Assembly: GCA_964449845.1 (NCBI GenBank)
Contig: CAYVES010000004.1
Location: 1 to 50,068, forward strand
Length of the DNA stretch: 50,068 bases
From: an uncultured Dehalococcoidia bacterium
GTDB taxonomy: Bacteria > Chloroflexota > Dehalococcoidia > SZUA-161
Reading direction: 5' to 3'
A program made the position numbers and the translations under genes. Positions within the stretch are counted from its first letter, which is position 1, and each line of letters starts with the position of its first letter. This document shows, piece after piece, positions 23,235 through 41,500 of this stretch. Under the pieces are notes generated by a model. The model worked only from the letters and a program-made list of their open reading frames with translations, was not told the origin of the DNA and did no database searches.

Positions 23235-23441
23235 ATGGCGGTAGAGAAGACAATGGCTTCCGATACCCTGGTTGAGGTCATCGACCGAATCCTAGACAAA
23301 GGCATAGTCGTTGATGCCTGGGTGAGGTTGTCACTGGTGGGCATCGAGCTGCTCACCATCGAGACCAGGGCGGTGGTCTCTTCCGTTGAGACCTTCCTCA
23401 AATACTCTGAGGCGGTTGGTCTTACTGCGCAAGCAGCCTAG
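23235..23441 (+). CDS. gvpA: Gas vesicle major structural protein GvpA
   Basis: 68 aa. [52 protein letters not shown] is the near-invariant GvpA core. A strong RBS (AAAGGAAAGGAGG) is present. Confidence 0.97.
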
Positions 23442-23675: not shown

Positions 23676-24293
23676 ATGGGAAGCCCTATTGAAAATGTCA
23701 TCGATTCATATGAGGCGCGCGTAACGACGGTTGGCGCCCTGATGAGGCAAATGGTGGAGGTCTTGAAACGGTTTGACCTCGAGCAGGAAGAGAAGGTTAT
23801 GGAGCTGCGTGACCTCTTGGCTCGTGCCGAATCTTTGAGAAGAAAGGACTTCGACACATTGATGGCGGAAATCCGGGCTCGGCGAAGGGAAAAGGAGAAG
23901 AAGGTTGCCCATGCTCTTGACAGTTTCCTGAAGGAGCAAGAGGAGCTGGTGGCCTGGCTGAGGAAGGTCATCACCGATGGCGATATCGGGTTGGAGGAAT
24001 TCAAGGCCCTGAGCCACAGCATCCTCACCCGGCAGAAGGGGGCGCAAGGAGACCTCGGCAGAATGTTGAGAGAGCTGCACCTGGAGCACGAGGAGATGAA
24101 CATTGGTCTGCGGAAGCTTCTCCAGAAGGGGGAGCGGGTCCGCGTAGAGGACTTCAAAGCCATGATAAAGGCTATCCAGCTCAGGCAGGGAGGGAGACAG
24201 GATGAGGTAGGCAGAATGCTGGACGAGCTGTGGGGGGTTGATGAGGAGGTGGCCTCCCAGTGGCACAAGGTGATGAGTTCTATTAGAACCTAA
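23676..24293 (+). CDS. Coiled-coil protein with three ~45-aa internal repeats (candidate GvpC-like accessory protein)
   Basis: 205 aa. Three repeats: SLRRKDFDTLMAEIRARRREKE..., IGLEEFKALSHSILTRQKGAQGDLGRMLRELH and VRVEDFKAMIKAIQLRQGGRQDEVGRMLDELW. It is the first protein gene after gvpA. Confidence 0.7.
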   Translation: MGSPIENVIDSYEARVTTVGALMRQMVEVLKRFDLEQEEKVMELRDLLARAESLRRKDFDTLMAEIRARRREKEKKVAHALDSFLKEQEELVAWLRKVITDGDIGLEEFKALSHSILTRQKGAQGDLGRMLRELHLEHEEMNIGLRKLLQKGERVRVEDFKAMIKAIQLRQGGRQDEVGRMLDELWGVDEEVASQWHKVMSSIRT

Positions 24294-24650
24294 TCAAATA
24301 TCAAAGGAGGGAAGGAAGTGTCAAGGGCAAGTGATGTGAGAAGTCCAGCCCGGGACATTCCTCAAACGCACGGGGAGAGGGCCAAGCAAGTGGCGGAGAT
24401 AAAGGAAGACGTCAAGGCGCTGGTAAAGGTCATCCAGCTCGGGCAGGAGGGGAGACAGGATGAAGTAGGCAAGATGCTGGACGAGTTGTGGGGTGTTGAT
24501 CGGGAGGTGGCTATCCAGTGGCACAAGGTGATGAGTTCTATTAGAACCTAATCGAATATCAAAGGAGGGAAGGAAATGTCAAGGGCAAGTGATGTGAGAA
24601 GTCTGACCCAGGATATTGCTCAAGCGCACGACGATAGGGCTCAAGAGCAG
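24148..24650 (+). repeat. Tandem duplication with a 258-bp period (about 1.9 copies)
   Basis: tggcacaaggtgatgagttctattagaacctaatc(a/g)aatatcaaaggagggaaggaa(g/a)tgtcaagggcaagtgatgtgagaagtc occurs at 24261 and 24519. The unit spans the 3' end of the 205-aa gene, the intergenic RBS and the 5' end of the next gene. Confidence 0.88.
24318..24551 (+). CDS. Chimeric 77-aa ORF created by the 258-bp duplication
   Basis: The N-terminal MSRASDVRSPARDIPQTHGERAKQVAEIKE matches the N-terminus of 24576-25244. The C-terminal QLGQEGRQDEVGKMLDELWGVDREVAIQWHKVMSSIRT matches the C-terminus of 23676-24293. GTG start, same RBS. Confidence 0.5.
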   Translation: MSRASDVRSPARDIPQTHGERAKQVAEIKEDVKALVKVIQLGQEGRQDEVGKMLDELWGVDREVAIQWHKVMSSIRT

Positions 24651-25244
24651 GTGGAGAGGACCAGGCGGATAGCCGAGATAGGAAAGGAGACGGCTGCCCT
24701 GCTCCAACACTTCGACGAGGCTCACGTCCAGATGAGCACCCGGCTCAAGGCACAACTGGCGAAAGAGAAGCAGGGGATTACTAGGGCCGAGATGGAGAGG
24801 AAGAAGGCATGTCAGGCCGACGCAAAGGCGAGAGCGGAAGAGGCAGAGGAGAGGGCAGATGAGGTCATTAGCATCCGCTCTGAGGCTAGAGACCTTGTAG
24901 AAAGCTTCAGCAAAGATTCGGCTGAGGCCGCGGCTGCCTGGCGGGACCTGGTGGCCGCCATGCAGGCCAGAAGGGGCATGGCAGCAGGGCCCCGTCCGGC
25001 TAGGCCGCCCGTCGCTGAAGCAATAGAGGAAGAGATGCCAATGGAGGAGGTCGTCCCGGAGGAAAAGCAGAAGCTGCAGAACAGGATACTCGACTTAATC
25101 ATGGAGCACGCGGAGGGAATAAAGCTCGCCCAGATGACAGAAGCTACGGGAGAGGCAAGGGTGAAGCTGGGCAATATCACCCGGATGCTGCTCGACGAGG
25201 GCAAGATCAGGAAAGAGGGCCTGCTCTATTTCCTGGCTGAATAG
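24576..25244 (+). CDS. Coiled-coil protein with a C-terminal winged-helix-like domain
   Basis: 222 aa. It has a long charged helical region, a Pro/Ala linker, then LQNRILDLIMEHAEGIKLAQMTEATGEARVKLGNITRMLLDEGKIRKEGLLYFL, a wHTH-like pattern. Confidence 0.68.
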   Translation: MSRASDVRSLTQDIAQAHDDRAQEQVERTRRIAEIGKETAALLQHFDEAHVQMSTRLKAQLAKEKQGITRAEMERKKACQADAKARAEEAEERADEVISIRSEARDLVESFSKDSAEAAAAWRDLVAAMQARRGMAAGPRPARPPVAEAIEEEMPMEEVVPEEKQKLQNRILDLIMEHAEGIKLAQMTEATGEARVKLGNITRMLLDEGKIRKEGLLYFLAE

Positions 25245-25273
25245 GCCATTGAGAGACTTTGCTCTTCAATGGC
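25245..25273 (+). terminator. Hairpin immediately after the stop codon (weak terminator or processing-site candidate)
   Basis: GCCATTGAGAG-actttg-CTCT(T)CAATGGC. There is no adjacent U-tract; GGTTTTTCC lies 13 nt downstream. Confidence 0.3.
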
Positions 25274-25330
25274 AAACCTATAGCGGTTTTTCCCTTCGCA
25301 ACGAACAGCGATGAGGAAGGAAGACGCAAT

Positions 25331-25729
25331 ATGGCCGAAGCAGAGGTAATGGAAAAGAGTGGCGACCGGGTTGGCATCAAGTGTGGCTTCTGTCACGGAA
25401 CAGGGAAGGACCCTTTCGGGCTCCTGTCTACACTTGCTGCCTGTCAGGTATGCGGAGGCAGGGGCAGGGTCACCGTCATCGAACCGGTAGTCAAGTGGGC
25501 CTTTTGTCACGGGAGTGGGGTGTAACCCTCCCGTAGATTGACGTGCACTGTGTATAGTGGCAAGGGGGTTGTCCCCACCCCCGCTGAGGGTGAAAGGGAG
25601 GTCTGCCCCGAGTGTGGGGGCAGGGGCAAGACCCGTGGCTACTTGAATGGCCCCTGCCTCAAGTGCAAGGGCAGGGGCTTCATAGTTGCCAAGAAACTGA
25701 AAGGAGGCGATCAAATATGGCGATGGTAG
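25331..25729 (+). pseudogene. DnaJ-type zinc-finger (CxxCxGxG) protein interrupted by an in-frame TAA; possibly decaying paralog of 28161-28526
   Basis: CGFCHGTGK and CQVCGGRGR are intact. WAFCHGSG has W where C is expected. TAA at 25526 is in frame. CTVYSGKG has Y where C is expected. CPECGGRGK and CLKCKGRG are intact. Both halves are in the same frame, and the 3' end overlaps the gvpN start. Confidence 0.55.
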
Positions 25730-26637
25730 AGGAGATGACCACCGTCCTGGAGCCGAGGCCGCTCCAGAATTTCGTCGAGACCAAGGCGGTAACGGATATA
25801 ACCGACCGCGCCCTGACCTATGCCGCCGCCGGATTCCCCGTCCACTTCAGGGGGACAACGGGAACGGGAAAGACAACCCTGGCCATGCATGTGGCCTCCA
25901 AGATCGGGCGGCCGGTGGTGATGATCCACGGTGATGAGGAGTTCAGCACCTCGGACCTGGTAGGTGGAGAACATGGCTACCACCGCAGGAAGGTTATCGA
26001 CAACTTCATCCACTCGGTGCTCAAAACCGAGGAGGATATGAGCAAGAAATGGATCGATGACCGCCTCACCGTAGCCTGCCGCTATGGATTTACCCTCATC
26101 TACGATGAGTTCACCAGGTCCCGCCCCGAGGCAAACAACGTGCTCCTCTCCGTGCTTCAGGAGAAGATGATGGACCTGCCCTCGTCGAGGGGAGTGGAGG
26201 AGAGCTACCTCAAGGTTCACCCCGATTTCACCGCCCTGTTCACCTCCAATCCCGAGGAGTATGCTGGCGTTTATCGAAGTCAGGATGCCCTCCGTGACCG
26301 CATGGTAACCATTGACCTCGATTTCTTTGATAAGGAAACGGAGATCGCCATCACCGAAGCCAAGTCCGGTATATCCCGGCGTGAGGCGGAGAAGATCGTA
26401 AGCATCGTTCGGGATCTGAGGGAATCGGGGAAATGCGAGTTTGCCCCCACCGTCCGCGGCTGCATCATGATCGCCAGGTCGCTGAAGCTTAAGGGTGTCC
26501 CTGCCAGTGCCAAGAACGGGCTCTTCGCCCAGATGTGCCAGGATATCCTGGCCTCGGAGACGAGCCGGGTGGGCAGCAAGAGCAGTCAAGAGAAAGTCAA
26601 GGAGGCCGTCAGGGAGCTGGTACCCAAGTATTGTTAA
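25717..26637 (+). CDS. gvpN: Gas vesicle AAA+ ATPase GvpN
   Basis: 306 aa from the ATG after GAAAGGAGG. Contains FVETKAVTDITDRALTYAAAGFPVHFRGTTGTGKTTLAMHVA (Walker A) and LIYDEFTRSRPEANNVLLSVLQE (Walker B and sensor region), typical of GvpN. Confidence 0.93.
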   Translation: MAMVEEMTTVLEPRPLQNFVETKAVTDITDRALTYAAAGFPVHFRGTTGTGKTTLAMHVASKIGRPVVMIHGDEEFSTSDLVGGEHGYHRRKVIDNFIHSVLKTEEDMSKKWIDDRLTVACRYGFTLIYDEFTRSRPEANNVLLSVLQEKMMDLPSSRGVEESYLKVHPDFTALFTSNPEEYAGVYRSQDALRDRMVTIDLDFFDKETEIAITEAKSGISRREAEKIVSIVRDLRESGKCEFAPTVRGCIMIARSLKLKGVPASAKNGLFAQMCQDILASETSRVGSKSSQEKVKEAVRELVPKYC

Positions 26638-27942: not shown

Positions 27943-28155
27943 ATGCCAAGCGGGACTGAAGCAGATGCCCTGAAAAGGATCAGTGAGGCTGGAGGGAGGA
28001 TCGATGTGAGAGCACTGGCTCGCAAAATGGGTCGCAACACCTCCTACATGAACACCATCTGCCGTTCTCTGGGGAAAGCCGATTACATCGATTACCTCGC
28101 CTCCGGGATGTGCGTTATCACCGCTATGGGCGAAGAAGCGGTGAAGGGCAGTTAG
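27943..28155 (+). CDS. Small winged-helix-like protein
   Basis: 70 aa: LKRISEAGGRIDVRALARKMGRNTSYMNTICRSLGKADYIDYLASGMCVITAMGEEAV. This resembles a MarR/ArsR-like wHTH core. RBS GGAGGGAG. Confidence 0.5.
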   Translation: MPSGTEADALKRISEAGGRIDVRALARKMGRNTSYMNTICRSLGKADYIDYLASGMCVITAMGEEAVKGS

Positions 28156-28160
28156 GGAAA

Positions 28161-28526
28161 ATGGCAAAGCGAGTGGTTGAATGCGTCTATTGCAAGGGGA
28201 AAGGGAAACGCAGCTATCTTGAAAAAGGGGTCGGGGTTGCTCTTCGCGGAGAACCGACTTATGAGTTCGTGTGCCCGGTGTGTTCTGGCAGGCGAAAGGT
28301 AGAGGTGGAGGAGCCAGCGAGAACTTGCGGCTTCTGCGGGGGGACGGGGCTATCAAAGCAGGGCAGTCTGGCTACCTGCCCTGTGTGCAAGGGTAAGGGT
28401 ATGGTCACGGTAATAGAGCCGGTCAGTCAGTGTCCTGCTTGCCGCGGACGGGGAAGGAAGCCCGGGAGCCCCCTTTACTGTATTAGATGTAAAGGCACCG
28501 GTTTCATAACCACAGTCAGGGTATGA
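28161..28526 (+). CDS. DnaJ-type zinc-finger protein (about five CxxCxGxG-type units, one degenerate), no J domain
   Basis: 121 aa from the internal ATG. Units: CVYCKGKGK, CPVCSGRRK, CGFCGGTGL, CPVCKGKGM, CPACRGRGR and CIRCKGTGF. Confidence 0.8.
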   Translation: MAKRVVECVYCKGKGKRSYLEKGVGVALRGEPTYEFVCPVCSGRRKVEVEEPARTCGFCGGTGLSKQGSLATCPVCKGKGMVTVIEPVSQCPACRGRGRKPGSPLYCIRCKGTGFITTVRV

Positions 28527-28551: not shown

Positions 28552-29565
28552 GTGAGCAACTATATCTACGGCGTGATTCAAACCAAGAAGGGGAAGAACT
28601 TCGGCCCCATCGGGATCGGCGGTGGGGATGAAGTTTATACCATCCTCTACCTGGACCTGGCAGCGGTGGTAAGCGATTCATTACCCGCTGCGCTCACTAC
28701 TCTCCCCAAGGAGGAGGTAGTGCGCTACCTCTTTGCTCACCAAGCCGTCATTGAGAAGGTGATGAAAGAGCATACTATTATTCCCCTCAAGTTCGGGACC
28801 ACTGTCGGCAGCGCTGAAGAGGTGAAAGAGATTTTAGAGAAGGCCTATCCTAAGTTCAAAGATGCCCTCGAAGCTATGGCGGGCAAGGTGGAGTTCGATG
28901 TGGTTGTTACCTGGAATAAGGACTCTGTGTTCAAGGACATCTCGCAGGAGGAGGAAATCATAAGGTTCAAGCAAAGCCTCGGCCCCCAGCCCTCGGCAGA
29001 AGATAAGGTGAAGCTGGGGCGAATGGTCGAAGACTTTCTAGGCAAGAGGAAAGAGACGCTTGCCCCAGAGATAACCGCTGCCTTAGCCGAAGTCGCTGAG
29101 GATTTCTGCCCCCACGATACCCTGGACGCCACCATGATTATTAACACCGCATTTTTGATCCGAAAAGACAAGCAGGAGGCCTTTGACCAGAAGCTTGACG
29201 AGATAGACTGCAAATATGATGGCGGCTTGAATTTCAGGCGGGTGGGGCCCCTACCACCCTATAGCTTCAGCACCGTTGAGGTCAAGAAGGCTGAGTTTGG
29301 AGAGATTGGAAGGGCAAGAAAGATACTGGGCTTGAGCCAGGAGGCTACGCAGTCCCAGATTAAGGAGGCTTACTGGAATCTGTCCTCGGAGTATCATCCC
29401 GACAAGCACCCGGGTGATGTGGCAATCCGAAAGAGGTTTGAGGATGTTTCCTGGGCCTATGAGCTTCTCACTGAATACTGCGGAGGAGAGAGGTTCTCTT
29501 TTCGAGAAAAGGATGCCAGGGCCTTTGTTAAGGTAGACCTGGTCGGAATCGGAAGAAGAGGGTAG
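28552..29565 (+). CDS. GvpF/GvpL-family protein fused to a C-terminal J domain (HPD motif present)
   Basis: N-terminal NYIYGVIQTKKGKNFGPIGIGGGDEVYTILYLDLAAVVSD...IPLKFGT is GvpF/L. C-terminal ARKILGLSQEATQSQIKEAYWNLSSEYHPDKHPGDVAIRKRFEDVSWAYELL is a J domain. GTG start. Confidence 0.88.
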   Translation: MSNYIYGVIQTKKGKNFGPIGIGGGDEVYTILYLDLAAVVSDSLPAALTTLPKEEVVRYLFAHQAVIEKVMKEHTIIPLKFGTTVGSAEEVKEILEKAYPKFKDALEAMAGKVEFDVVVTWNKDSVFKDISQEEEIIRFKQSLGPQPSAEDKVKLGRMVEDFLGKRKETLAPEITAALAEVAEDFCPHDTLDATMIINTAFLIRKDKQEAFDQKLDEIDCKYDGGLNFRRVGPLPPYSFSTVEVKKAEFGEIGRARKILGLSQEATQSQIKEAYWNLSSEYHPDKHPGDVAIRKRFEDVSWAYELLTEYCGGERFSFREKDARAFVKVDLVGIGRRG

Positions 29566-29570
29566 CTGAA

Positions 29571-30323
29571 GTGGCTGAGGAAGGTAAATACCTCTACTGC
29601 ATTATCGCAAACAACGAAGGAAGAAACTTCGGTCCACTTGGCATCGGCGGGAGAGGTGATCCGGTTACCACCATCTCCTACAATGACCTCAGTGGGGTCA
29701 TCAGCGACGCCCCGATAAAGGAGTATGCCACCACCAGGGCGAATACCATCGCTCATGAGAAAGCTATCGAGAAAGTGATGAGCGAGGGGAATGCCGTCCT
29801 CCCGGTGAGATTCGGCACTGTGGCCGATAGCGCTCAGGAAGTGCGGGACATTCTGCGCAAGAGAGACCGGGAATTCAAAGACCTGCTCCGCGATATGGAC
29901 AACAAGGTCGAACTGGGGGTGAAGGCGCTCTGGCTTGATATGGACGCTATCTTTAACGAGATCATAGAGGAAAGTGGCGACATCAGAGTGTTGAGAAACA
30001 GGGCTGCCCGCAAGCCAACTCGAGATAGCATGATTCGGGTGGGGGAGCTGGTCAAGGAGGCCTTGGAGGAGAAGAAGGAAAGGGAGGCAGCCTCAATACT
30101 TCAGCCCCTGAACAAGATCGCCCCCGATTCCAAGGTCAATAAGCCCTTCGGCGATAGAATGTTCCTCAATGCCGCCTTCCTGGTTGACAAAGGCTGGGGA
30201 AAACAATTCGACAATGAAATCGAAACCCTGACGATGAAGTATGCCCAGAGGGCGAAGATCACCTATGTTGGGCCTGCCCCGCCCTTCAACTTCGTCAACA
30301 TAGTAATCCACTGGGAAAGATAA
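29571..30323 (+). CDS. gvpF: Gas vesicle protein GvpF/GvpL family
   Basis: 250 aa: KYLYCIIANNEGRNFGPLGIGGRGDPVTTISYNDLSGVISD...VLPVRFGTV...FNFVNI. GTG start, 5 nt after the previous stop. Confidence 0.88.
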   Translation: MAEEGKYLYCIIANNEGRNFGPLGIGGRGDPVTTISYNDLSGVISDAPIKEYATTRANTIAHEKAIEKVMSEGNAVLPVRFGTVADSAQEVRDILRKRDREFKDLLRDMDNKVELGVKALWLDMDAIFNEIIEESGDIRVLRNRAARKPTRDSMIRVGELVKEALEEKKEREAASILQPLNKIAPDSKVNKPFGDRMFLNAAFLVDKGWGKQFDNEIETLTMKYAQRAKITYVGPAPPFNFVNIVIHWER

Positions 30324-30324
30324 G

Positions 30325-30561
30325 ATGCCCATTCTAACAACCTACCTAATCTTCAAGGGTCTTCGAGGCATTGCCGGGAAGATTCGCGATATGGCTGAGG
30401 AGGAATACTACGGGGAGGACAGGATAAAGCAGCAGCTTCTGGAACTCCAGATGAGGTTGGAGATGGATGAGCTAACCGAGGAGGAGTATCTGAAAGCGGA
30501 AGCTGCCCTGATGGGAAGGTTGGAGGAAGGTCGCCAACGCGGCGTTCAAGGAGCAGTATGA
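30325..30561 (+). CDS. gvpG: Gas vesicle protein GvpG
   Basis: 78 aa: GIAGKIRDMAEEEYYGEDRIKQQLLELQMRLEMDELTEEEYLKAEAALMGRLEE, the characteristic GvpG helix pattern. Confidence 0.88.
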   Translation: MPILTTYLIFKGLRGIAGKIRDMAEEEYYGEDRIKQQLLELQMRLEMDELTEEEYLKAEAALMGRLEEGRQRGVQGAV

Positions 30562-32525
30562 TGGCCGCCTTTCTGGCCAACCCATACCTCAAGCTCATAA
30601 TCTTCGGCGGCAAGGGAGGGAGCGGCAAGACAACCTCGGCTGCGGCTGCTGCCCTCCATTTCCGTAAGCTCGACCCCGAAAAGAGGATACTGGTTATGTC
30701 CACCGACCCCGCCCACTCCCTCGGCGACAGCTTCGACATCGCTATCGGCAACAGGGTTACCCCCATAAAGGAGACCGTCTGGGGGCTGGAAGTAGACTCT
30801 AATGAGCTGTTTGAGGAATACAAAGCCAAGCACGGAGACGCGATGAAGAAGATAGCCGACCGGGGGACCTATTTTGACCAGGATGATATCGAGGACTTCT
30901 TCACCAAGACCCTCCCTGGTTTGGATGAGGTTATGGCTGTCATTCGCATCGCCGACCTGCTTAAAGCCGGGGAATATGACCTGATTATTCTGGATACCGC
31001 CCCCACCGGGCACACCCTGGTCCTCCTTTCCCTGCCTGAGGAGATGGAGAAATGGATTCATCTCATGGATATGCTCATGCAGAAACATCGCTATATGATG
31101 AGAAGGCTGGTCGGCAGATACAAAAGGGACGAGTGTGACGAGTTCATCGACAGCCAGCAAAAGGATATCAGCAGGGTGAGACAGCTCCTCAGCGATGCCA
31201 CAGCAAGCGAGTTTGTTCCGGTTACCATCCCAGAGCCGATGAGCATCGCCGAAACAGAAAGAGCCGTCAAGGCTTTGAAGGAGCACAACATTGCGGTCAA
31301 CAGCATCATCGTCAACCGGGTTATCGAGGAGCAGCGGGAGTGTTCCTTCTGCTCGGTGAGGTGGGCGGAGAAGGAAAAGTATGTGCGGGAGATTGAGCAG
31401 AAGTTCGCTCATTACAATCTGGTCAAGATGCCCCTCTTCCCCTACCAGATCCGGGGCGAGAGCTTGACCGAGTATGCCCAGGTACTCTTCGGGGAGAGAG
31501 AATATGCCCCTCCCCCCAGGGCGGAGGTCTTGCCCCAAGCCCCTCCCCTGCCCAAAGGGGGGTTCTCCGATATTCTGGAGAAGGAGCTTAGCTTCCTCAT
31601 CTTCGGGGGCAAGGGAGGGGTGGGCAAGACCTCAATTGCCGCCGCCAGCGCCCTCCATTTAGCCCGACATAAGCCGGATAGGAAGGTCCTCGCCTTCTCC
31701 ACCGACTCCGCCCATGCCCTCTCCGACAGCTTCGAGCAGCGTATTGGCAACCAAATCACCCCGATTTCGGGTATCGATAATCTCTACGCCCTGGAGATTG
31801 ATGGCACCCAGATGCTGGAGGACTTCAAGCAGGAGTATCGAGATGACATAGATGAAGCCTTTCAGAGGTTTCTCGGCACCCACATGGACATGAAGTTTGA
31901 CCGGGAGGTTCTTAAAGAGTTCTTGGCTGTCTCTCCCCCGGGCCTTGATGAGCTCATGTCTTTGCAAGAGATTACGGGTCTCATGAAGGAAGGAGACTAC
32001 AGCCTCTTTGTCCTCGACTCAGCAGCCTCGGGGCACCTGATTCGTTTTCTGGAACTCCCCCATCTGATGAGGGAGTGGCTGAAGAGCGTCTTCAGGCTGC
32101 TCATCAAGTATAGGGGGATGGTGAAGCTGAACAGGGCTACGGAGCGCCTTCTGAGCCTATCCCGGGATTTGAGAAAGATATTGGAGGTTCTCTCCGATCC
32201 CCGAGGAACGGAGTTTGTGATGATCACCATCCCTGAGGAGATGGGGGTGGCGGAGATGGAGGACCTGTCAGAATCTTTAGCCAACCTTAGAATCCCCTGC
32301 TCTCATGTAGTCATTAACATGATAATCCCTCCCACCGACTGTGGTTTCTGTGCTGCCAAGAGAAAAGAGCAGCAGGGCTATATCCAGGAAATCGAGGCAA
32401 AACTGCCTCATCACACCATCGTTCCCATACCTTTACTCCCCCATGATATCAGGGGGGTAGAGCACTTGAGCGAACTTGCCGAGATTATGTACGGGAAGGC
32501 GATGGTGAGCGCTAAGAGATCTTAG
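30558..32525 (+). CDS. Tandem (pseudo-dimeric) ArsA/Get3/TRC40-family ATPase
   Basis: 655 aa. Two P-loops (GGKGGSGKTT, GGKGGVGKTS), two STD(P/S)AH(S/A)L motifs and two switch motifs (LDTAPTGHTL, LDSAASGHLI). Each half carries a CxxC followed by a Get3-like helix (CSFCSVRWAEKEKYVREIE, CGFCAAKRKEQQGYIQEIE). The first half has a Met-rich segment, MEKWIHLMDMLMQKHRYMMRRL. ATGA overlap with the gvpG stop. Confidence 0.88.
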   Translation: MMAAFLANPYLKLIIFGGKGGSGKTTSAAAAALHFRKLDPEKRILVMSTDPAHSLGDSFDIAIGNRVTPIKETVWGLEVDSNELFEEYKAKHGDAMKKIADRGTYFDQDDIEDFFTKTLPGLDEVMAVIRIADLLKAGEYDLIILDTAPTGHTLVLLSLPEEMEKWIHLMDMLMQKHRYMMRRLVGRYKRDECDEFIDSQQKDISRVRQLLSDATASEFVPVTIPEPMSIAETERAVKALKEHNIAVNSIIVNRVIEEQRECSFCSVRWAEKEKYVREIEQKFAHYNLVKMPLFPYQIRGESLTEYAQVLFGEREYAPPPRAEVLPQAPPLPKGGFSDILEKELSFLIFGGKGGVGKTSIAAASALHLARHKPDRKVLAFSTDSAHALSDSFEQRIGNQITPISGIDNLYALEIDGTQMLEDFKQEYRDDIDEAFQRFLGTHMDMKFDREVLKEFLAVSPPGLDELMSLQEITGLMKEGDYSLFVLDSAASGHLIRFLELPHLMREWLKSVFRLLIKYRGMVKLNRATERLLSLSRDLRKILEVLSDPRGTEFVMITIPEEMGVAEMEDLSESLANLRIPCSHVVINMIIPPTDCGFCAAKRKEQQGYIQEIEAKLPHHTIVPIPLLPHDIRGVEHLSELAEIMYGKAMVSAKRS

Positions 32526-32551: not shown

Positions 32552-32926
32552 ATGGCGCTAACGGCGGAAAAGGACTCAGGCGGAACCCTGGCTGATGTCA
32601 TCGACCGGGTTCTGGACAAAGGGCTGGTAATTAACGCCGACATCACCGTGTCTCTGGCTGGGGTGGAGCTATTGGGCATTAAGATAAGGGCAGCCCTGGC
32701 TTCTTTTGAGACGGCAGCCAAGTATGGCCTGGAGTTTCCCTCGGGGACAAATTATGAGACCGCTGCCTGGCAGGAGGCTACAGTTGCCAAAGAGGAATGT
32801 CCCCAGTGTGAGAAGAGGGTGCACCTGGATGAACTCCTCAACGAGGGGTGCCCGTGGTGCGGCTGGGTCAGCGCCAAGGCCAAGGCAATCCGCGCCAAGG
32901 CAACTCCAGAGATGGAAGCCCGCTAA
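32552..32926 (+). CDS. gvpJ: GvpA/GvpJ-family protein with C-terminal zinc ribbon
   Basis: TLADVIDRVLDKGLVINADITVSLAGVELLGIKIRAALASFETAAKYG is the GvpA/J core. CPQCEKRVHLDELLNEGCPWCGW follows. Confidence 0.85.
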   Translation: MALTAEKDSGGTLADVIDRVLDKGLVINADITVSLAGVELLGIKIRAALASFETAAKYGLEFPSGTNYETAAWQEATVAKEECPQCEKRVHLDELLNEGCPWCGWVSAKAKAIRAKATPEMEAR

Positions 32927-34138: not shown

Positions 34139-34813
34139 ATGGCTGAGAAGAAGGAACGGGAAGACAAGATAAGGGAGCTTGAGAAAAAGATCGAGAGGCT
34201 GGAGGAACAACTGGAAAGGCGCAGGCGAGGTGGGGCGGCCGGCAGCGTGCTCCGTGGACTGGGCGATGTTATACCCGGGCTGGGCAGGATGCTCGAGGGG
34301 CTGGAGGATTCGGAGGCTTTCCAGGAAAGGCTGGACGCCATCAACAAGGAGGTTGATAAGAGGCTCAGGGAAACACCGCTTGAGAGGGTGGAAGGAGGAG
34401 GTAGTGATATCGGGATTGCCAAAGGAAGAATACCTAGAAGGGGCTCTATCCCTAATGTGGCGAAAGGTTTCTCAATAAGGAGCTTGGCCCCGGAGAAACC
34501 CGCCTTTGAAGTGAAGGGAGAGAAGCCCCGGCCCAAAAGGCAGAGAGCGGCAGAACCCCGGCCTAGCATAGAGAGAGAGGTCCTGGTGGACGTCTTCGAA
34601 GAGGATAATCACCTGAAGATAATCGCCGAGATCCCGGGAGTGCAAGAAGGGGACATATTGGTCGAGTCTAAGGGAAATGCCGTGCTTATATCCGTTGATA
34701 CCCCTCAGCGCAAGTATCACAAAGAGGTGGCATTGCCCTGCCCGGTTAAGGGGGGACCCAAGACATCTTACAAAAACGGCATCCTGGAAATCGAACTGGA
34801 GAAAGAGGGCTGA
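34139..34813 (+). CDS. Small heat-shock (alpha-crystallin domain) protein with N-terminal coiled coil
   Basis: 224 aa. VLVDVFEEDNHLKIIAEIPGVQEGDILVESKGNAVLISVDTPQRKYHKEVALPCPVKGGPKTSYKNGILEIELEKE is a typical Hsp20 ACD. Confidence 0.8.
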   Translation: MAEKKEREDKIRELEKKIERLEEQLERRRRGGAAGSVLRGLGDVIPGLGRMLEGLEDSEAFQERLDAINKEVDKRLRETPLERVEGGGSDIGIAKGRIPRRGSIPNVAKGFSIRSLAPEKPAFEVKGEKPRPKRQRAAEPRPSIEREVLVDVFEEDNHLKIIAEIPGVQEGDILVESKGNAVLISVDTPQRKYHKEVALPCPVKGGPKTSYKNGILEIELEKEG

Positions 34814-34815
34814 GC

Positions 34816-35142
34816 ATGCCACTTGATATCGATGAGGGCAATCTGAAGCATGGTGTGTTGGGACTGGTCATTGCGCTGGTGGAGATAATCAGGGATACCC
34901 TCAGGATCGAAGCCTTCCGGAGAATGGACGGCGGAAGCCTAGCAGATGAGGAATGTGAGCGGCTGGGAGAAGCACTGCTCGACCTGGATATGGCTATCGA
35001 GGAGATAAAAGAGGAGCAGGGCATCACCGAGGCAGTTCAGCAGGTGAGGGATGGCCTGGATGACATCGCGAGGGAAGTGGTTGACAGAATGGCAAACCCG
35101 GTGAGATGGGAGGAGGAAGCCGAAAGGCAAGGGGTGTGCTAG
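34816..35142 (+). CDS. gvpK: Gas vesicle protein GvpK
   Basis: 108 aa: GVLGLVIALVEIIRDTLRIEAFRRMDGGSLADEECERLGEALLDLDMAIEEI, the characteristic GvpK block. Confidence 0.9.
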   Translation: MPLDIDEGNLKHGVLGLVIALVEIIRDTLRIEAFRRMDGGSLADEECERLGEALLDLDMAIEEIKEEQGITEAVQQVRDGLDDIAREVVDRMANPVRWEEEAERQGVC

Positions 35143-36219
35143 ATGGAAAAGGATCTGAGAGCAAGAAAAGCAATAGAGCAGCTGGTGAGGCAAGAGGTAC
35201 AGAGAATAGCCTCTGAAACCAAGGACCTGTTGAGGGAGATGGTGAGAGCCACCCTACTGCCCGAGCTCAGGGCAGCTATTCAAGATTCTATCTCCGAGGT
35301 GGTGCAGGAGGCGTTGAGTGAGGAGATACTACCAGTCCGTGAAGCCGATATATTTGAGGAAGTTTCAGGGGTTGAAGCTGCTTTCCCGGAAGAGGAAGTA
35401 GGGGAGATGCCGGATGCCGAGGGAGAGCCGGCCTTGGAGGAGGCCAGGGGCACCAAAAATGGGAGCGGCAGGTATGCATATTGCGTCGCCGATTCCGGGG
35501 AAATGGTCAACCTGGGACAGATAGGAATTGAAAACAGTGAAGTCTACACTATTCCCTACAACGGCTTGTGCGCTGTCGTCCATAACTGCTCCACAGAGCC
35601 CTATAAGTCAGAGGATGAGGAAGTGGTCAAGGGCTGGGTGCAGATCCACCAGAAGGTCCTCGATGTGGCTATGGAAAGGTTTGCCACCGTGCTTCCCCTC
35701 GGCTTCGACACGATAATAAAAAGCGAAGATGAAGTCGAGCCCGATCAGGTGGTGAAGGACTGGCTTAAGGATGATTTCGAGAATCTCAGGGAGAAGATGG
35801 ACCGCGTCAGGGGAAATCAGGAGTTCGGCATCCAGGTATTCTATGATCCCAAGGTGATGGGGGAAGTGATTGCCCGGGAGAGCGAGGAGATTCAGAAACT
35901 GCAAGTGGAGATGGCGTCTCAGAAGCCGGGGATGGCCTATATGTATAAGCAGAAGGTGGAGAAGGCGGTGAAAGAGGAAATGGAGAGGAGGGCAGAACAG
36001 AGCTTTAAGGATCTTTACCAGGCAATCAGAAATCAGGTTGATGACATCAAGGTGGAGAAGGTCAAAAGAGACAGGGATAAGACGATGCTTATGAATCTAT
36101 CCTGCCTGGTATTAAAGGAGAAGGTGGAGGACCTGGGCAATGTACTGGAGGGGATTGACAACATGGATGGCTTCTCAGTCCGCTTCACCGGGCCCTGGGC
36201 TTCTCATAGCTTTGTCTAG
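35143..36219 (+). CDS. gvpL: Gas vesicle protein GvpL/GvpF family with an acidic N-terminal extension
   Basis: 358 aa. GRYAYCVADSGEMVNLGQIGIENSEVYTIPYNGLCAVVHN...VLPLGFDTII...FTGPWA. The ATG directly abuts the gvpK stop. Confidence 0.85.
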   Translation: MEKDLRARKAIEQLVRQEVQRIASETKDLLREMVRATLLPELRAAIQDSISEVVQEALSEEILPVREADIFEEVSGVEAAFPEEEVGEMPDAEGEPALEEARGTKNGSGRYAYCVADSGEMVNLGQIGIENSEVYTIPYNGLCAVVHNCSTEPYKSEDEEVVKGWVQIHQKVLDVAMERFATVLPLGFDTIIKSEDEVEPDQVVKDWLKDDFENLREKMDRVRGNQEFGIQVFYDPKVMGEVIARESEEIQKLQVEMASQKPGMAYMYKQKVEKAVKEEMERRAEQSFKDLYQAIRNQVDDIKVEKVKRDRDKTMLMNLSCLVLKEKVEDLGNVLEGIDNMDGFSVRFTGPWASHSFV

Positions 36220-37019: not shown

Positions 37020-38132
37020 GTGGGAATGCAACCTACGGCGGCAACGGAATGTGGTGTAACCGATCTCTTAGAGAGGATTCTAGACAAGGGGCTGGTAATC
37101 CATGCCGACCTCATAGTCTCCCTGGCAGGGGTTCCTCTTGTCGGGGTTACTCTAAAGGCAGCCATAGCCGGGATGGAGACAATGCTGAAGTATGGCATGT
37201 TGACCGATTGGGATGAAAAGACCCGCGACTGGGCTCGAACGGAGCGGGAGGAATCTCGAAAAGCGAGCGGGGTCTTGAAAGACGGTGAAGAGGTTCTGAT
37301 CAGGATGTTCGGCTCCCACTGGTACAGCCGGGGCATCTACCGCAACTGGAGGCCGGGGCATCTCTACGTCACCGATAGGAGGCTTCTACTGTGGAGACCC
37401 TATCCCGGCGAGGTATTAACGGAGGTTCACTACGAGCTAATAAAAGGAATGGCTGTGGAGAGAAGGATAAATGTCGCCAAGAAGGAAACGGATTACCTTT
37501 ATATATTGCTCAAGGATGGCGAGGTGGTTCAACTCCATCCCACCGATGCTTCGGTGGTAAGAGAGGCTATTGAAAACAGGATGCAAACGCTGGGACTGCA
37601 ACTGGAGAGTTACCCAGCTATCCCGCCCGTTGATGAGGGGGCAGCCAGGTTCTTGACCCCTGGCGAGCAAGTTACCCACTGCGGCAGGATGTGGCACCTC
37701 GTGACCCAGCCCTCCCCGGGCGGAATCACCAGCGAGAAGTGGAAGCCGGGACACCTGTATCTAACCAACGAGAGGCTGTACTGGTATCACGACTTCGACG
37801 GCAAGGTGGACTGGGAAGCCCCCCGTGACAGCCTGGTTCATGCCACTGCTCAGTTAAAGAATCTCGGGGGTATGCTGAAGGAGAAGCAGGTCCTCAGTGT
37901 GCTGCACAAGACCGGGTCAGGTAACAGGGTAGCATGCTTCTCTGGCGTGCCGGTGGAGATGAAGGACTGGGAGGATGCCCTAGTAGATGTCATCAGGCAG
38001 CGCAGCGAACCCATGCCTGAGGACTGGGAACAGTGCCCCCAGTGCGGGGAGAAAGCGCCCCGAGAGAGGCTGGTAAAAGATGGCTGCCCGGTGTGCGGCT
38101 GGGTAAGCCCCAGGCTGACGCGAAGAGTCTAG
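37020..38132 (+). CDS. GvpA/GvpJ-family domain fused to two PH/GRAM-like domains and a C-terminal zinc ribbon
   Basis: 370 aa. VTDLLERILDKGLVIHADLIVSLAGVPLVGVTLKAAIAGMETMLKYGM is the GvpA-family core. WRPGHLYVTDRRLLLW and WKPGHLYLTNERLYWY mark two PH/GRAM-like modules. CPQCGEKAPRERLVKDGCPVCGW closes it. The start may be the ATG at 37026. Confidence 0.83.
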   Translation: MGMQPTAATECGVTDLLERILDKGLVIHADLIVSLAGVPLVGVTLKAAIAGMETMLKYGMLTDWDEKTRDWARTEREESRKASGVLKDGEEVLIRMFGSHWYSRGIYRNWRPGHLYVTDRRLLLWRPYPGEVLTEVHYELIKGMAVERRINVAKKETDYLYILLKDGEVVQLHPTDASVVREAIENRMQTLGLQLESYPAIPPVDEGAARFLTPGEQVTHCGRMWHLVTQPSPGGITSEKWKPGHLYLTNERLYWYHDFDGKVDWEAPRDSLVHATAQLKNLGGMLKEKQVLSVLHKTGSGNRVACFSGVPVEMKDWEDALVDVIRQRSEPMPEDWEQCPQCGEKAPRERLVKDGCPVCGWVSPRLTRRV

Positions 38133-38757: not shown

Positions 38758-40503
38758 ATGGCTAGAGTCATAGGGATTGATTTGGGTACTACCAACTCGG
38801 TAGCTGCCTTTATAGAGAATCGCAAGCCAAAGGTCATCCCCAATGCCGAGGGTGGTCGGCTGACCCCTTCTGTAGTGGCGTTGACCGCAGATGGGAGGCG
38901 GCTGGTGGGGCAACTGGCAAAGAGGCAGGCCGTAGCCAACCCCGAGAAAACCGTTGTCTCCATGAAGAGGCGAATGGGCTCTGACTTCAGGGTGAGGCTT
39001 GGCCGAAAGGAGTACACGCCTCAAGAGGTCTCAAGCCTTATCTTGGGTAAGATCAAAGCCGATGTCGAAAGCTACCTGGTGGAGAGGGTGGAAAAGGCGG
39101 TGATCACCGTTCCTGCCTATTTCAATGACTCTCAGCGTCAAGCCACCAAAGATGCTGGGACCATCGCTGGGTTGGATGTACTCAGGATTATTAACGAACC
39201 CACGGCCGCTGCCTTGGCCTATGGGTTGGATAAGCAGGACGCCCATAATATCCTGGTCTGGGACCTTGGCGGCGGCACGTTCGATGTCTCCATCCTGGAG
39301 CTGGGCAGGGGAATGTTTGAGGTCAAGGCGGTAAGTGGCAACACCTGGCTGGGGGGGGATGACTGGGACCAGCGTATCGTGGATTATCTGGCTGGCGAGT
39401 TCCAGAGACAGCACGGCATCGACTTGCGAGAAGACAGGATAGCCCTGCAGCGGCTGAGGGAGGCCGTGGAGAAAGCCAAGATCGAGCTTTCAAACAGCCA
39501 GGTTGCCTCCATCAAACTGACGTTTATCCTCAGTAACAACCATGATGCCGAACATCTGGATATGACACTGACCAGGGAAAGGTTCGAGGAGCTAACAGAG
39601 GATTTGCTTCAGAAGATGATTGGGCCCACCAAGCAAGCTTTGGCCGATGCCAAACTCGAGCCTGAAGATATCGATAGGGTAGTTCTGGTAGGCGGAGCTA
39701 CCAGGATGACGGCGGTGCAGCAGCTATGCCGAGCGCTCTTGCGTAAGGAGCCTTACAAGGACATCGATCCCGATGAGGTGGTGGCTATGGGCGCCGCCAT
39801 TCAAGCCGGGATGCTAAGCGGTGAACTGGAAAAGGTAACATTGCTCGATGTTACCCCCCTCTCTCTGGGCATTGAGACCAGGGGCGGGATTTTTGCCAGG
39901 ATTATTGAAAGGAATGCCAAAATTCCTACCTCCACAAGCCAGGTATTTTCCACGGCTTTCGACAACCAGCCTGAGGTGGATATTCATGTGCTGCAGGGAG
40001 AGAGGGAGATGGCTTGTTACAACATGAGCCTGGGCAGATTTCAGCTCACCGATATCCCCCTTGCTCCCCGAGGAGTGCCCCGCGTCGAGGTCGTCTTTAG
40101 TATCGACGTTAACGGCATTCTCCAGGTGTCTGCCACAGACCTATATACCGAAAATGAAGCCAGATTAAGGATTCAGTCCTCCAGGCTATCACCTGAGGAC
40201 ATCGGACGGATGATCGAAGAAGCTAAGGTCTATGCTGAGGAGGACAAGAGGCGGCGCGAAGAGGTAGAGATAGGTATTAGAGCCGACAACCTCATCTATG
40301 CTGCTGAAAAGATGGTGGAGCAGACAGGGGATAGATTGGATGACACCCAGCTTGCGGAAACAGAGGCAAAGGTATTAGCGGTGAAGTCCGCTCTAGCCAG
40401 TGGAGATACTGAGGAGATCAGGTTAAGAACTGAAGACCTACAAGAAGTGGTCCGGGAGTTATACACGGAGAAGGAGGAGCTTACCAGTGCAAGGGCGACT
40501 TGA
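38758..40503 (+). CDS. Hsp70 (DnaK-family) chaperone, compact 581-aa form
   Basis: [72 protein letters not shown] and a full beta-sandwich SBD ([13 protein letters not shown]...[19 protein letters not shown]). The helical lid is short. Confidence 0.95.
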
Positions 40504-40758: not shown

Positions 40759-40787
40759 TTGACATGTGTTTAATCATCTGTTATAAT
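40759..40787 (+). promoter_or_regulatory. Consensus sigma70-type promoter upstream of the HTH-Hsp20 gene
   Basis: TTGACA (40759-40764), a 17-nt spacer, then TATAAT (40782-40787). It lies 18 nt upstream of the ATG at 40805, so the leader is very short or absent. Confidence 0.62.
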
Positions 40788-40804: not shown

Positions 40805-41500
40805 ATGGAGAATAGACGTATCAGGGGATTGCGATTAGAGCTTGGTCTGTCTCAGGAGAGGTTTGCTCGGCTCGTTGGCGTCTCACTGCAAACGGTGCGA
40901 CGGTGGGAGGAAGGCTTAACCAGACCTCTGCCTGTCTTGAGTCTCAAGCTGGAGGAGCTACAAAGAAATTCCGGAGGTGTTGGAATGGGTGAGGAGGAAA
41001 AGAAGAAAGTGGAAGGAACTGTGGATATTGGTTTCGGTGGCCTGTTCAAGGGACTCGGCAGCCTGTTTGACCTCGTCTCCAGGATGGCTGAGGAGGGGAA
41101 AGATGAATATACCCGCACCGGGGAGATTACGGGCCTGGGCGACAAGGCTAAGGGAGTATATGGCTTTAGCGTAAAGATGGGGCTGGGAGGAAAGCCGACT
41201 ATAGAACAGTTCGGCAATATCAAGGCAACCGAGAGGGGGCCGGTGGTGGCGGAGGTCAGGGAGCCTATAGTTGATGTCTTCGATGAGGGGGAGAGATTGG
41301 TAGTGATCGCTGAACTTCCTGGTGTGGACGAGGACGACATCCACCTTGAGGTGAAAGATGACATTATCGATCTGGCTGCGGAAGCAAAGGACAGGAAGTA
41401 CAGTAAGGAGATTCTACTTCCCTCGGCAGTGGATGCCGATTCTATGCAATCTACCTACAAGAACGGGATTCTGGAGATAACGTTCAAGAAGAAGCAATAA
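40805..41500 (+). CDS. XRE-type HTH domain fused to an alpha-crystallin (Hsp20) domain
   Basis: N-terminal IRGLRLELGLSQERFARLVGVSLQTVRRWEEG is an HTH_3 pattern. C-terminal PIVDVFDEGERLVVIAELPGVDEDDIHLEVKDDIIDLAAEAKDRKYSKEILLPSAVDADSMQSTYKNGILEITFKK is an ACD. Confidence 0.83.
   Translation: MENRRIRGLRLELGLSQERFARLVGVSLQTVRRWEEGLTRPLPVLSLKLEELQRNSGGVGMGEEEKKKVEGTVDIGFGGLFKGLGSLFDLVSRMAEEGKDEYTRTGEITGLGDKAKGVYGFSVKMGLGGKPTIEQFGNIKATERGPVVAEVREPIVDVFDEGERLVVIAELPGVDEDDIHLEVKDDIIDLAAEAKDRKYSKEILLPSAVDADSMQSTYKNGILEITFKKKQ

Follow-up and report, generated by a model that had tools for sequence, protein, structure and literature searches.

A conserved fusion of GvpF to a J domain as a candidate Hsp70 co-chaperone in gas-vesicle gene clusters of uncultured bacteria

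Introduction

Here we describe GvpF-J, a protein in which the gas-vesicle protein GvpF is fused to a C-terminal J domain with an intact HPD motif. It is encoded in a gas-vesicle (gvp) gene cluster on a 50,068-nucleotide (nt) stretch of DNA, referred to below as the window, from an uncultured Dehalococcoidia bacterium (assembly GCA_964449845.1, contig CAYVES010000004.1, positions 1-50,068, forward strand). The fusion itself is confirmed far beyond chance. We further consider it probable that the GvpF module of this protein binds the major shell protein GvpA and that its J domain loads GvpA onto a dedicated Hsp70 encoded in the same cluster.

The solubility and insertion of the extremely hydrophobic GvpA are an open question on which GvpF-J bears. 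Crystal structures of GvpF do exist, and we know of no demonstration of its mechanism. A chaperone role for GvpF has recently been proposed from interaction screens (PMC11445434), and the fusion, together with a dedicated Hsp70 in the same cluster, offers independent genomic support for that proposal as well as a directly testable system. Neither a fusion of GvpF to a J domain nor an Hsp70 inside a gvp cluster was described in the gas-vesicle literature that we searched as full text; the mentions of DnaK and DnaJ in PMC12848028 come solely from a cited reference on chaperone co-expression plasmids.

Results

GvpF-J joins a GvpF domain and a J domain in one reading frame

The gene for GvpF-J starts with a GTG codon behind a GGAGG-type ribosome-binding site, 25 nt past the stop codon of a zinc-finger gene (28526), and it ends 5 nt ahead of the start of a second gvpF gene (29571; Table 1). 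In an alignment of 36 diverse GvpF-J sequences (alignment A1), the homologues begin in line with its N-terminus, MSNYIYGVI. An original prediction, made from the letters of the window, had read this gene as a GvpF/L-family protein fused to a J domain with an intact HPD motif, and this reading holds: the frame is uninterrupted, and in a search with hidden Markov models (HMMs) both Pfam domains score above their cut-offs on the same open reading frame (ORF). GvpL_GvpF (PF06386) covers residues 4-240 (E 6.2e-59, 200.4 bits against a cut-off of 23.6, profile positions 3-244 of 245), and DnaJ (PF00226) covers residues 257-307 (E 7.2e-15) with 55.3 bits, twice the cut-off of 27.8.

The fold prediction points the same way. 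An AlphaFold2 model built from the 36-sequence alignment, with a mean predicted local distance difference test score (pLDDT) of 89.7 and a predicted template modelling score (pTM) of 0.76, places J helices I, II and III at residues 249-258, 267-280 and 290-309 around the HPD loop. Compared with the PDB by Foldseek, the model matches the GvpF fold (6l5d_B, E 5.7e-15, template modelling (TM) score 0.77; 4qsg, E 1.2e-13) and a long list of J domains, including that of Escherichia coli DnaJ bound to DnaK (5nro_B; root-mean-square deviation 1.1 A over 53 residues, 40% identity). PDB sequence searches agree with these fold matches, the GvpF domain again matching 6l5d and 4qsg. By score and by fold, GvpF-J is a member of both the J-domain and the GvpL/GvpF families. 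It is not a canonical class-A DnaJ: the NCBIfam model TIGR02349 gives 45.3 bits against a cut-off of 377.2, with the J domain alone aligning, and additional NCBIfam matches of the J domain, to DjlA and to the terminal-organelle protein TopJ, are weak.

The match to the J fold covers helices I-III only, and the position of helix IV is taken by a strand-helix-strand tail, modelled with a pLDDT of about 77-79 as a strand at residues 314-316, a helix at 319-324 and a second strand at 326-331. In alignment A1, C310 (nt 29479-29481) is kept in at least 90% of the fused family, and the second conserved cysteine of the tail is a phenylalanine in the window protein (EYCGGERFSF). The GvpF domain in turn carries a histidine, H188 (nt 29113-29115), that is kept in at least 90% of the fused family and is absent at the aligned position of GvpF2, the J-less paralogue encoded by the next gene. 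Together, H188 and the tail cysteine could provide a metal or disulfide tether from the tail to the GvpF domain.

The fusion recurs across phyla

A database search for the same architecture returned upwards of 250 independent sequences with the GvpF-J fusion, the most distant at about 31% identity. Among the best 120 of 770 matches (E < 1e-5; 5.8 billion protein clusters searched, 90% clustering), which are 44-90% identical to the window protein, all but one carry both PF00226 and PF06386, and the HPD motif is present in 119; the exception, P0021, looks frameshifted past residue 255. The source names of these best matches are automatic only ("GvpL/GvpF family gas vesicle protein", "Chaperone protein DnaJ" or "DnaJ-domain-containing protein"). 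More distant homologues were drawn from a library clustered at 50% identity. Nearly all of its best 150 representatives align through residue 305 or further, and HPD is found in 137 of the 146 that were new. Distant members without HPD keep a J-like region and may be natural J-like derivatives. Within alignment A1, H282, P283 and D284 are invariant, as are the J-core residues L259, Y303 and L306, and A255, R256, L261, L277, F296 and A302 are kept in at least 90% of the sequences.

For genomic context we used the best 80 of 544 loci that encode relatives in a species-representative genome collection; 20 of these 80 have complete flanks of 10 kilobases (kb). All 80 carry the fusion, and all come from metagenome-assembled genomes or single-cell genomes. 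The closest of them (L001, 85% identity) is likewise from an uncultured Dehalococcoidia bacterium. Carriers among these loci (labels of mixed rank) fall in the Chloroflexota (Dehalococcoidia, Anaerolineales) and the Desulfobacterota (Syntrophales, Desulfobacteraceae, Desulfatiglandales), and also in Aerophobetes, Zixibacteria, Nitrospirota, Nitrospinota, Planctomycetota, Omnitrophota, Latescibacter, Acidobacteria, Verrucomicrobiota, NC10 and Bipolaricaulia. Judged from these sequences, the GvpF-J fusion is natural, ancient and widely conserved. One locus, L062 (contig CAYSLW010000220.1, 3.6 kb), has GvpF-J and an adjacent Cdc48 gene and is binned to the archaeon Candidatus Methanoperedens. Either this contig was mis-binned or a transfer into archaea took place.

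The cluster Hsp70 belongs to a lineage linked to gvp genes

The window contains exactly one J domain and one Hsp70. The Hsp70 that the original prediction had placed at 38758-40503 is real (Pfam HSP70, E 1.5e-216), and it aligns end to end with the DnaK of Geobacillus kaustophilus (E 4e-197, 62% identical). With the NCBIfam models it scores above the cut-off of PRK00290 (818 bits against 648) and below that of TIGR02350 (794 against 822.55). An assignment as HscA was rejected, the HscA models staying below their cut-offs with 561 bits against 818 for DnaK, and profile scans of the window found no HscB match and no isc genes. The protein keeps D8, K70, R71, E171, T199 and D201, which we take to be catalytic residues of DnaK, R167, N170 and T173, presumably those that contact the J domain, and the interdomain linker V-T-L-L-D. 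Residue numbering that rests on the E. coli DnaK, DnaJ and GrpE references used here is provisional; these references gave coherent matches in the expected operon order. Neither GrpE nor a canonical DnaJ was found in the window with Pfam, NCBIfam, a family-specific J HMM or tblastn searches with the E. coli GrpE and DnaJ references.

In a scan of metagenomes, 17 relatives of the window Hsp70 have a gvp-type flanking match, 15 of them at 61-92% identity and two at 60% and 56%; the gvp context of the 56% relative is a single Hsp20-type match. Every relative of at least 61% identity that has any flanking match sits among gvp genes. Most of the 17 gvp-linked Hsp70s have GvpJ370, a GvpJ/M-like protein, upstream or the HTH-Hsp20 (helix-turn-helix-Hsp20) and Cdc48 genes downstream, and none lies beside grpE or dnaJ. 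Among relatives of at most 60% identity, about 50 of 58 are in grpE-dnaK-dnaJ arrangements. These Hsp70-centred loci were taken with 6-kb flanks, and GvpF-J, about 9 kb away, lies beyond them. In a neighbour-joining tree (no bootstrap) the gvp-linked Hsp70s form two clades, of which the window type stands apart from the operon DnaKs and the other is nested among them. The housekeeping DnaK of Desulfobacterota and Nitrospirota normally has an insertion of about 24 amino acids (aa) in the nucleotide-binding domain (NBD), and the window-type gvp-linked Hsp70s are without it in these two phyla also. By its relatives and their gene neighbourhoods, the cluster Hsp70 is shown to be a gas-vesicle-dedicated paralogue and not the housekeeping DnaK.

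The two Hsp70 types also differ in their position relative to GvpF-J. The insertion-less type lies 5-10 kb downstream in the window, L001, L012, L020, L023, L029, L054, L077 and L078. The second lineage, which bears the insertion and is found in the Anaerolineales loci within L027-L063, has its gene end 30-96 nt before GvpF-J in nine loci and 1.8 kb upstream in two more. Two unrelated Hsp70 lineages appear to have become linked to GvpF-J, i.e. twice independently. Overall, an Hsp70 lies within 10 kb of GvpF-J in 27 of the 80 loci and in 12 of the 20 with complete flanks, and the latter count is a lower bound because the window Hsp70 itself starts 9.2 kb downstream of GvpF-J.

J helix II varies with the presence of an Hsp70

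Helix II reads IKEAYWNLSSEY-HPD in the window clade (GvpF-J residues 270-281, nt 29359-29394), and many other clades have a basic helix II, e.g. KSAHRKLVFKY-HPD. The residue equivalent to K26 of E. coli DnaJ is aromatic in 19 of the 28 Hsp70-containing clusters (27 loci and the window; Tyr in 12, Trp in 7). It is aromatic in none of the eight full-flank loci without an Hsp70, six of which have Arg or Lys there. Fisher's exact test of 19/28 against 0/8 gives p = 0.0008, on counts that are phylogenetically non-independent and dominated by few clades. The K26-equivalent residue may be a specificity switch, and the pattern is suggestive of a matched pair. Covariation between J helix II and the NBD loop of the Hsp70 (ELGxG) gave no clear residue-to-residue pattern.

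Zinc-finger proteins accompany the J domain

The original prediction had also suggested that the canonical DnaJ architecture has been taken apart in this cluster, with the J domain on GvpF and the zinc-finger region encoded as two separate proteins. This interpretation is partly supported. Zn138, the intact zinc-finger protein encoded directly upstream of GvpF-J, passes the Pfam cut-off for DnaJ_CXXCXGXG (45.5 bits against 32.7). The gene near 25331 does not: an in-frame TAA splits it, its halves stay sub-threshold with 18 and 20 bits, and its CXXCXGXG motifs carry Cys-to-Trp and Cys-to-Tyr changes. This gene is probably a paralogue of Zn138 in decay. When E. coli DnaJ was compared with the window, residues 9-59 matched GvpF-J, residues 144-204 matched Zn138 and residues 138-210 matched positions 25424-25696, and no match to the glycine/phenylalanine-rich (G/F) region or to the C-terminal client-binding domains was found anywhere in the window. 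J and zinc-finger regions do sit in separate proteins, and there is no sign that they arose by fission of a DnaJ. J proteins of modular class-C build are an established kind, and so are DnaJ-type zinc-finger proteins that stand alone.

Layout of the gas-vesicle cluster

The gas-vesicle cluster of the window spans about 21 kb, lies entirely on the + strand and has two-component regulators on both sides (Table 1). The genes gvpA, N, F, G, J, K and L all fall within 23.2-38.1 kb, and the related loci have them likewise together. The same gene set recurs in very similar order in the 80 related loci, with homologues of Cdc48 in 53, GvpN in 52, GvpA in 50, HTH-Hsp20 in 46, Zn138 in 45, the Hsp20-like protein in 44, the ArsA-type ATPase in 33 and Hsp70 in 27. 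In 44 of the 52 loci with a same-strand Cdc48, at most about 400 nt separate the end of this gene from GvpF-J downstream of it; the Cdc48 block of the window and of L001 is displaced to behind the Hsp70. The order GvpK-GvpL-GvpJ370-Hsp70 is conserved.

Table 1. Features of the gas-vesicle gene cluster in the window, in order along the DNA; parts of GvpF-J follow its own row.
Feature	Position (nt)	Strand	Size or residues	Basis and remarks
GvpA, major shell protein, presumed client	23235-23441	+	68 aa	Pfam Gas_vesicle, E 1e-15
Two coiled-coil-like genes	just after gvpA	+	205 aa, 222 aa	cluster order
Second zinc-finger gene, split	25259-25729	+		in-frame TAA at 25523-25525; translation, sub-threshold Pfam
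GvpN-type AAA+ ATPase	25612-26637	+		Pfam AAA_5; true start probably downstream of 25612
Small genes and MarR-like ORF	between gvpN and 28110	+		cluster order
Zn138, stand-alone DnaJ-type zinc-finger protein	28110-28526	+	138 aa	six CXXCXGXG-like motifs; Pfam
GvpF-J, GvpF domain with C-terminal J domain	28552-29565	+	337 aa	stop codon included; ORF, Pfam, AlphaFold2, Foldseek
GvpL/GvpF domain, presumed GvpA-binding module	28561-29271	+	residues 4-240	Pfam; crystal-structure matches 6l5d/4qsg
J domain	29293-29481	+	residues 248-310	helices I, II, III; Pfam match 257-307
HPD tripeptide	29395-29403	+	H282 P283 D284	cat ccc gac; read from sequence
C-terminal tail in place of J helix IV	29482-29562	+		consensus YCxxxxCSF+xxDV..F..I..L (alignment A1)
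GvpF2, J-less GvpF paralogue	29571-30323	+	250 aa	35% identical to the GvpF domain of GvpF-J (BLASTP); Pfam; PDB sequence match
GvpG	30325-30561	+		Pfam PF05120, E 2e-16
Two-domain ArsA/Get3-type ATPase	30558-32525	+		Pfam ArsA_ATPase, E 8.5e-144
GvpJ/GvpA-family protein	32552-32926	+	124 aa	Pfam Gas_vesicle, E 2.7e-17
Zinc-ribbon protein	between gvpJ (32552) and 34139	+		cluster order
Hsp20-like-domain protein	34139-34813	+		weak Pfam HSP20 and ArsA_HSP20 matches
GvpK	34816-35142	+		Pfam
GvpL	35143-36219	+		Pfam
GvpJ370, GvpJ/M-like protein with long C-terminal extension	37020-38132	+	370 aa	Pfam
Cluster Hsp70, presumed J-domain partner	38758-40503	+	581 aa	Pfam HSP70, E 1.5e-216
HTH-Hsp20 (GvpH-like)	40805-41500	+		Pfam
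Cdc48-type double AAA+ ATPase	41683-43827	+		Pfam
Further conserved gene	after Cdc48	+		cluster order

Several further features of the cluster were observed. GvpJ370, whose gene always sits just upstream of the downstream-type Hsp70, has faint PH-like and zinc-ribbon matches in its C-terminal extension of some 300 aa. The ArsA/Get3-type ATPase and the ArsA-associated Hsp20-like protein are conserved parts of this cluster type, a hint that the hydrophobic shell protein may be handled in a Get3-like step. Behind gvpA, a 253-nt tandem direct repeat (24147-24399 and 24405-24657, 84% identity) spans the end of the 205-aa gene, a chimeric ORF of 77 aa (24318-24551) and the start of the 222-aa gene; a recent internal duplication seems to have produced it. 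A sigma-70-type promoter directly ahead of the HTH-Hsp20 gene matches at 12 of 12 positions (40759-40787, +; TTGACA, 17-nt spacer, TATAAT, with TG), suggesting that the Hsp20/Cdc48 block may be a separate transcription unit. Across the window as a whole, promoter and terminator matches were not above shuffled expectation, and an Rfam scan gave zero matches.

Discussion

We propose that GvpF-J would be a class-C J-domain protein that acts as a co-chaperone in gas-vesicle biogenesis. J domains with an intact HPD motif have one known activity, namely docking on ATP-bound Hsp70 and triggering hydrolysis, which traps the client. In our model, the N-terminal GvpF domain would bind the hydrophobic GvpA or its relatives GvpJ/M, by homology to GvpFs that bind GvpA, and the C-terminal J domain would then dock by its HPD loop and helices II and III on the ATP-bound Hsp70 and trigger hydrolysis, such that Hsp70 clamps the client held by GvpF. 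The Hsp70 used would chiefly be the cluster-encoded one, which comparative genomics places in a gas-vesicle-linked lineage without DnaJ or GrpE neighbours. Because the cluster has no exchange factor, nucleotide exchange would fall to the housekeeping GrpE of the cell. A wider set of cluster products, comprising the Hsp20s, the DnaJ-type zinc-finger proteins, the Cdc48-type unfoldase, the ArsA/Get3-type ATPase and GvpN, may hold GvpA in solution and bring it to the shell as this grows. This model agrees with published work in which GvpF was reported to bind GvpA, its homologues act as early assembly factors that bind free GvpA, and GvpF was proposed to chaperone GvpA2 ahead of its hand-over to GvpG (PMC11445434). 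We believe that recruitment of the cluster Hsp70 to GvpA by GvpF-J is the best-supported reading because the J domain is intact, conserved and the sole one in the window, the Hsp70 is dedicated to gvp clusters, and a second Hsp70 lineage directly adjoins GvpF-J elsewhere.

Several observations weigh against this reading. The most constant neighbour of GvpF-J is not Hsp70 but the Cdc48-type AAA+ ATPase, which the original prediction had missed, and no Hsp70 is seen in 8 of the 20 loci whose 10-kb flanks are complete, so the cluster Hsp70 is either not an obligate partner or is located further off. Helix II of the window protein has Trp and Asn at the positions of K26 and R27 of E. coli DnaJ, residues that we take to be important for DnaK binding, and no basic residue there; as these basic equivalents are missing, its affinity for a standard DnaK may be reduced. 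J helix IV is replaced by the family-specific tail. A few distant members lack HPD (P0216, P0241, P0247, P0265 and P0266), and P0159 reads QPD, the classic inactivating change of this motif; since these members have lost HPD, J function is dispensable in some lineages. Finally, every carrier is uncultured, and gas vesicles in these organisms are predicted from genes.

Some of these points would fit a different partnership, in which GvpF-J works with the housekeeping DnaK and GrpE and the cluster Hsp70 acts separately, for example with a housekeeping DnaJ or the zinc-finger proteins. The loci that have GvpF-J and no nearby Hsp70 are what one would expect from such an arrangement, as is the basic helix II that six of these eight share with canonical DnaJ, and J domains are often promiscuous among Hsp70s. 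We nevertheless regard this partnership as unlikely, since the cluster Hsp70s belong to gvp-dedicated lineages without a J protein of their own alongside, the link between Hsp70 and GvpF-J has apparently formed twice independently and once as a directly adjacent gene, and an aromatic or neutral helix II tends to go with Hsp70-containing clusters (19/28 against 0/8, p = 0.0008, with the phylogenetic non-independence of these counts in mind). The prominence of Cdc48 raises another possibility, that shell-bound GvpF-J recruits Hsp70 for disassembly or recycling; with the help of the Hsp20s and Cdc48, Hsp70 would pull GvpA out of vesicles that have collapsed or are not wanted, or out of aggregates. 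The cluster encodes what a disaggregase network consists of (an Hsp70, a J protein, proteins with Hsp20 domains and an AAA+ unfoldase), no neighbour is linked more tightly to GvpF-J than Cdc48, and the J domain lies C-terminal to what would be a lattice-binding module, as it does in auxilin; the uncoating of clathrin by auxilin and Hsc70 and the disaggregation by Hsp70, J proteins and ClpB are known parallels. The reported early binding of free GvpA by GvpF homologues (PMC11445434) speaks for assembly instead, and we give a role primarily in disassembly a somewhat smaller chance than the housekeeping partnership, while noting that assembly and extraction are compatible with each other.

It is far less probable again that the J domain is a non-functional J-like remnant or that the fusion is an assembly or frameshift artefact. 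The distant relatives without HPD, the QPD of P0159 and the apparent frameshift of P0021 could be read in this way. Against them stand the uninterrupted ORF of the window, an HPD motif and J core that are invariant or nearly so across phyla, a Pfam score of twice the cut-off and a confidently predicted fold. For the window protein itself, both readings are effectively refuted by the Pfam scores, the alignment and the predicted fold, and the same single ORF in more than 250 independent assemblies speaks further against an artefact.

With recruitment of the cluster Hsp70 to GvpA by GvpF-J as the favoured reading, a broader and more speculative picture can be drawn, to which we would give somewhat less than an even chance. 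A widespread and horizontally mobile type of gas-vesicle cluster in uncultured anaerobes might encode a complete proteostasis system dedicated to one organelle, in which GvpF-J selects clients for a private Hsp70 to which its helix II is co-adapted, and in which the Hsp20s, zinc-finger holdases, Cdc48 and Get3/ArsA take over GvpA one after another, keeping it in solution, inserting it and perhaps also extracting it.

If this broader picture is correct, we know of no earlier case of a dedicated Hsp70 system that builds a protein-shelled bacterial organelle, and the fusion would speak, as evidence from nature, for a role of GvpF as GvpA chaperone adaptor in every gas-vesicle system. The J domain on GvpF and the dedicated Hsp70 in its cluster suggest that a private chaperone system serves many uncultured bacteria in building their flotation organelles, and sediment and groundwater lineages for which metagenomes are the sole record may commonly have gas vesicles. 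There is also a practical side: in E. coli or mammalian cells, most gas-vesicle clusters do not assemble, and they provoke proteotoxic stress there (PMC10344784; PMC12848028). Clusters that bring their own Hsp70, J-protein, small heat shock protein and AAA+ machinery are a possible source of parts that could improve acoustic reporter genes.

Comparison with known systems

The GvpF proteins of cyanobacteria, Bacillus (Priestia) megaterium and Halobacterium (4QSG, 6L5D) share fold and family with the N-terminal module of GvpF-J, and they too are encoded in the gvpA cluster, adjoined by gvpG and a second gvpF/L paralogue. The matched GvpF crystal chains are 250-253 residues long, align to residues 58-242 of GvpF-J only and have no J domain, whereas GvpF-J has about 95 extra C-terminal residues. 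We know of no characterised GvpF with a J domain.

With the canonical class-A DnaJ, GvpF-J shares a J domain that is about 40% identical (E. coli); in the window, by contrast, the zinc finger is a separate polypeptide, and the cluster has neither a G/F region nor the C-terminal domains. Zn138 is alike in make-up to the plant proteins BSD2, LQY1 and PSA2, small chaperones that consist solely of CXXCXGXG repeats and help a specific complex to assemble, the comparison being made at motif level. In auxilin/GAK, DjlA and Mycoplasma TopJ, the J domain is carried on a module that binds a particular assembly or site, where Hsp70 is recruited locally, and GvpF-J would follow the same logic while having no sequence relation to these proteins outside the J domain.

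An analogy in organisation is the HscB/HscA pair of iron-sulfur (Fe-S) cluster assembly, which likewise consists of a specialised J protein with a client-targeting domain and its own Hsp70 in the operon of the pathway, with no GrpE. Only the J domain is shared with that pair. GvpF-J has its J domain at the C-terminus and a GvpF module for the client, its presumed client is a self-assembling amphipathic shell protein, and the Hsp70 beside it is of the DnaK type.

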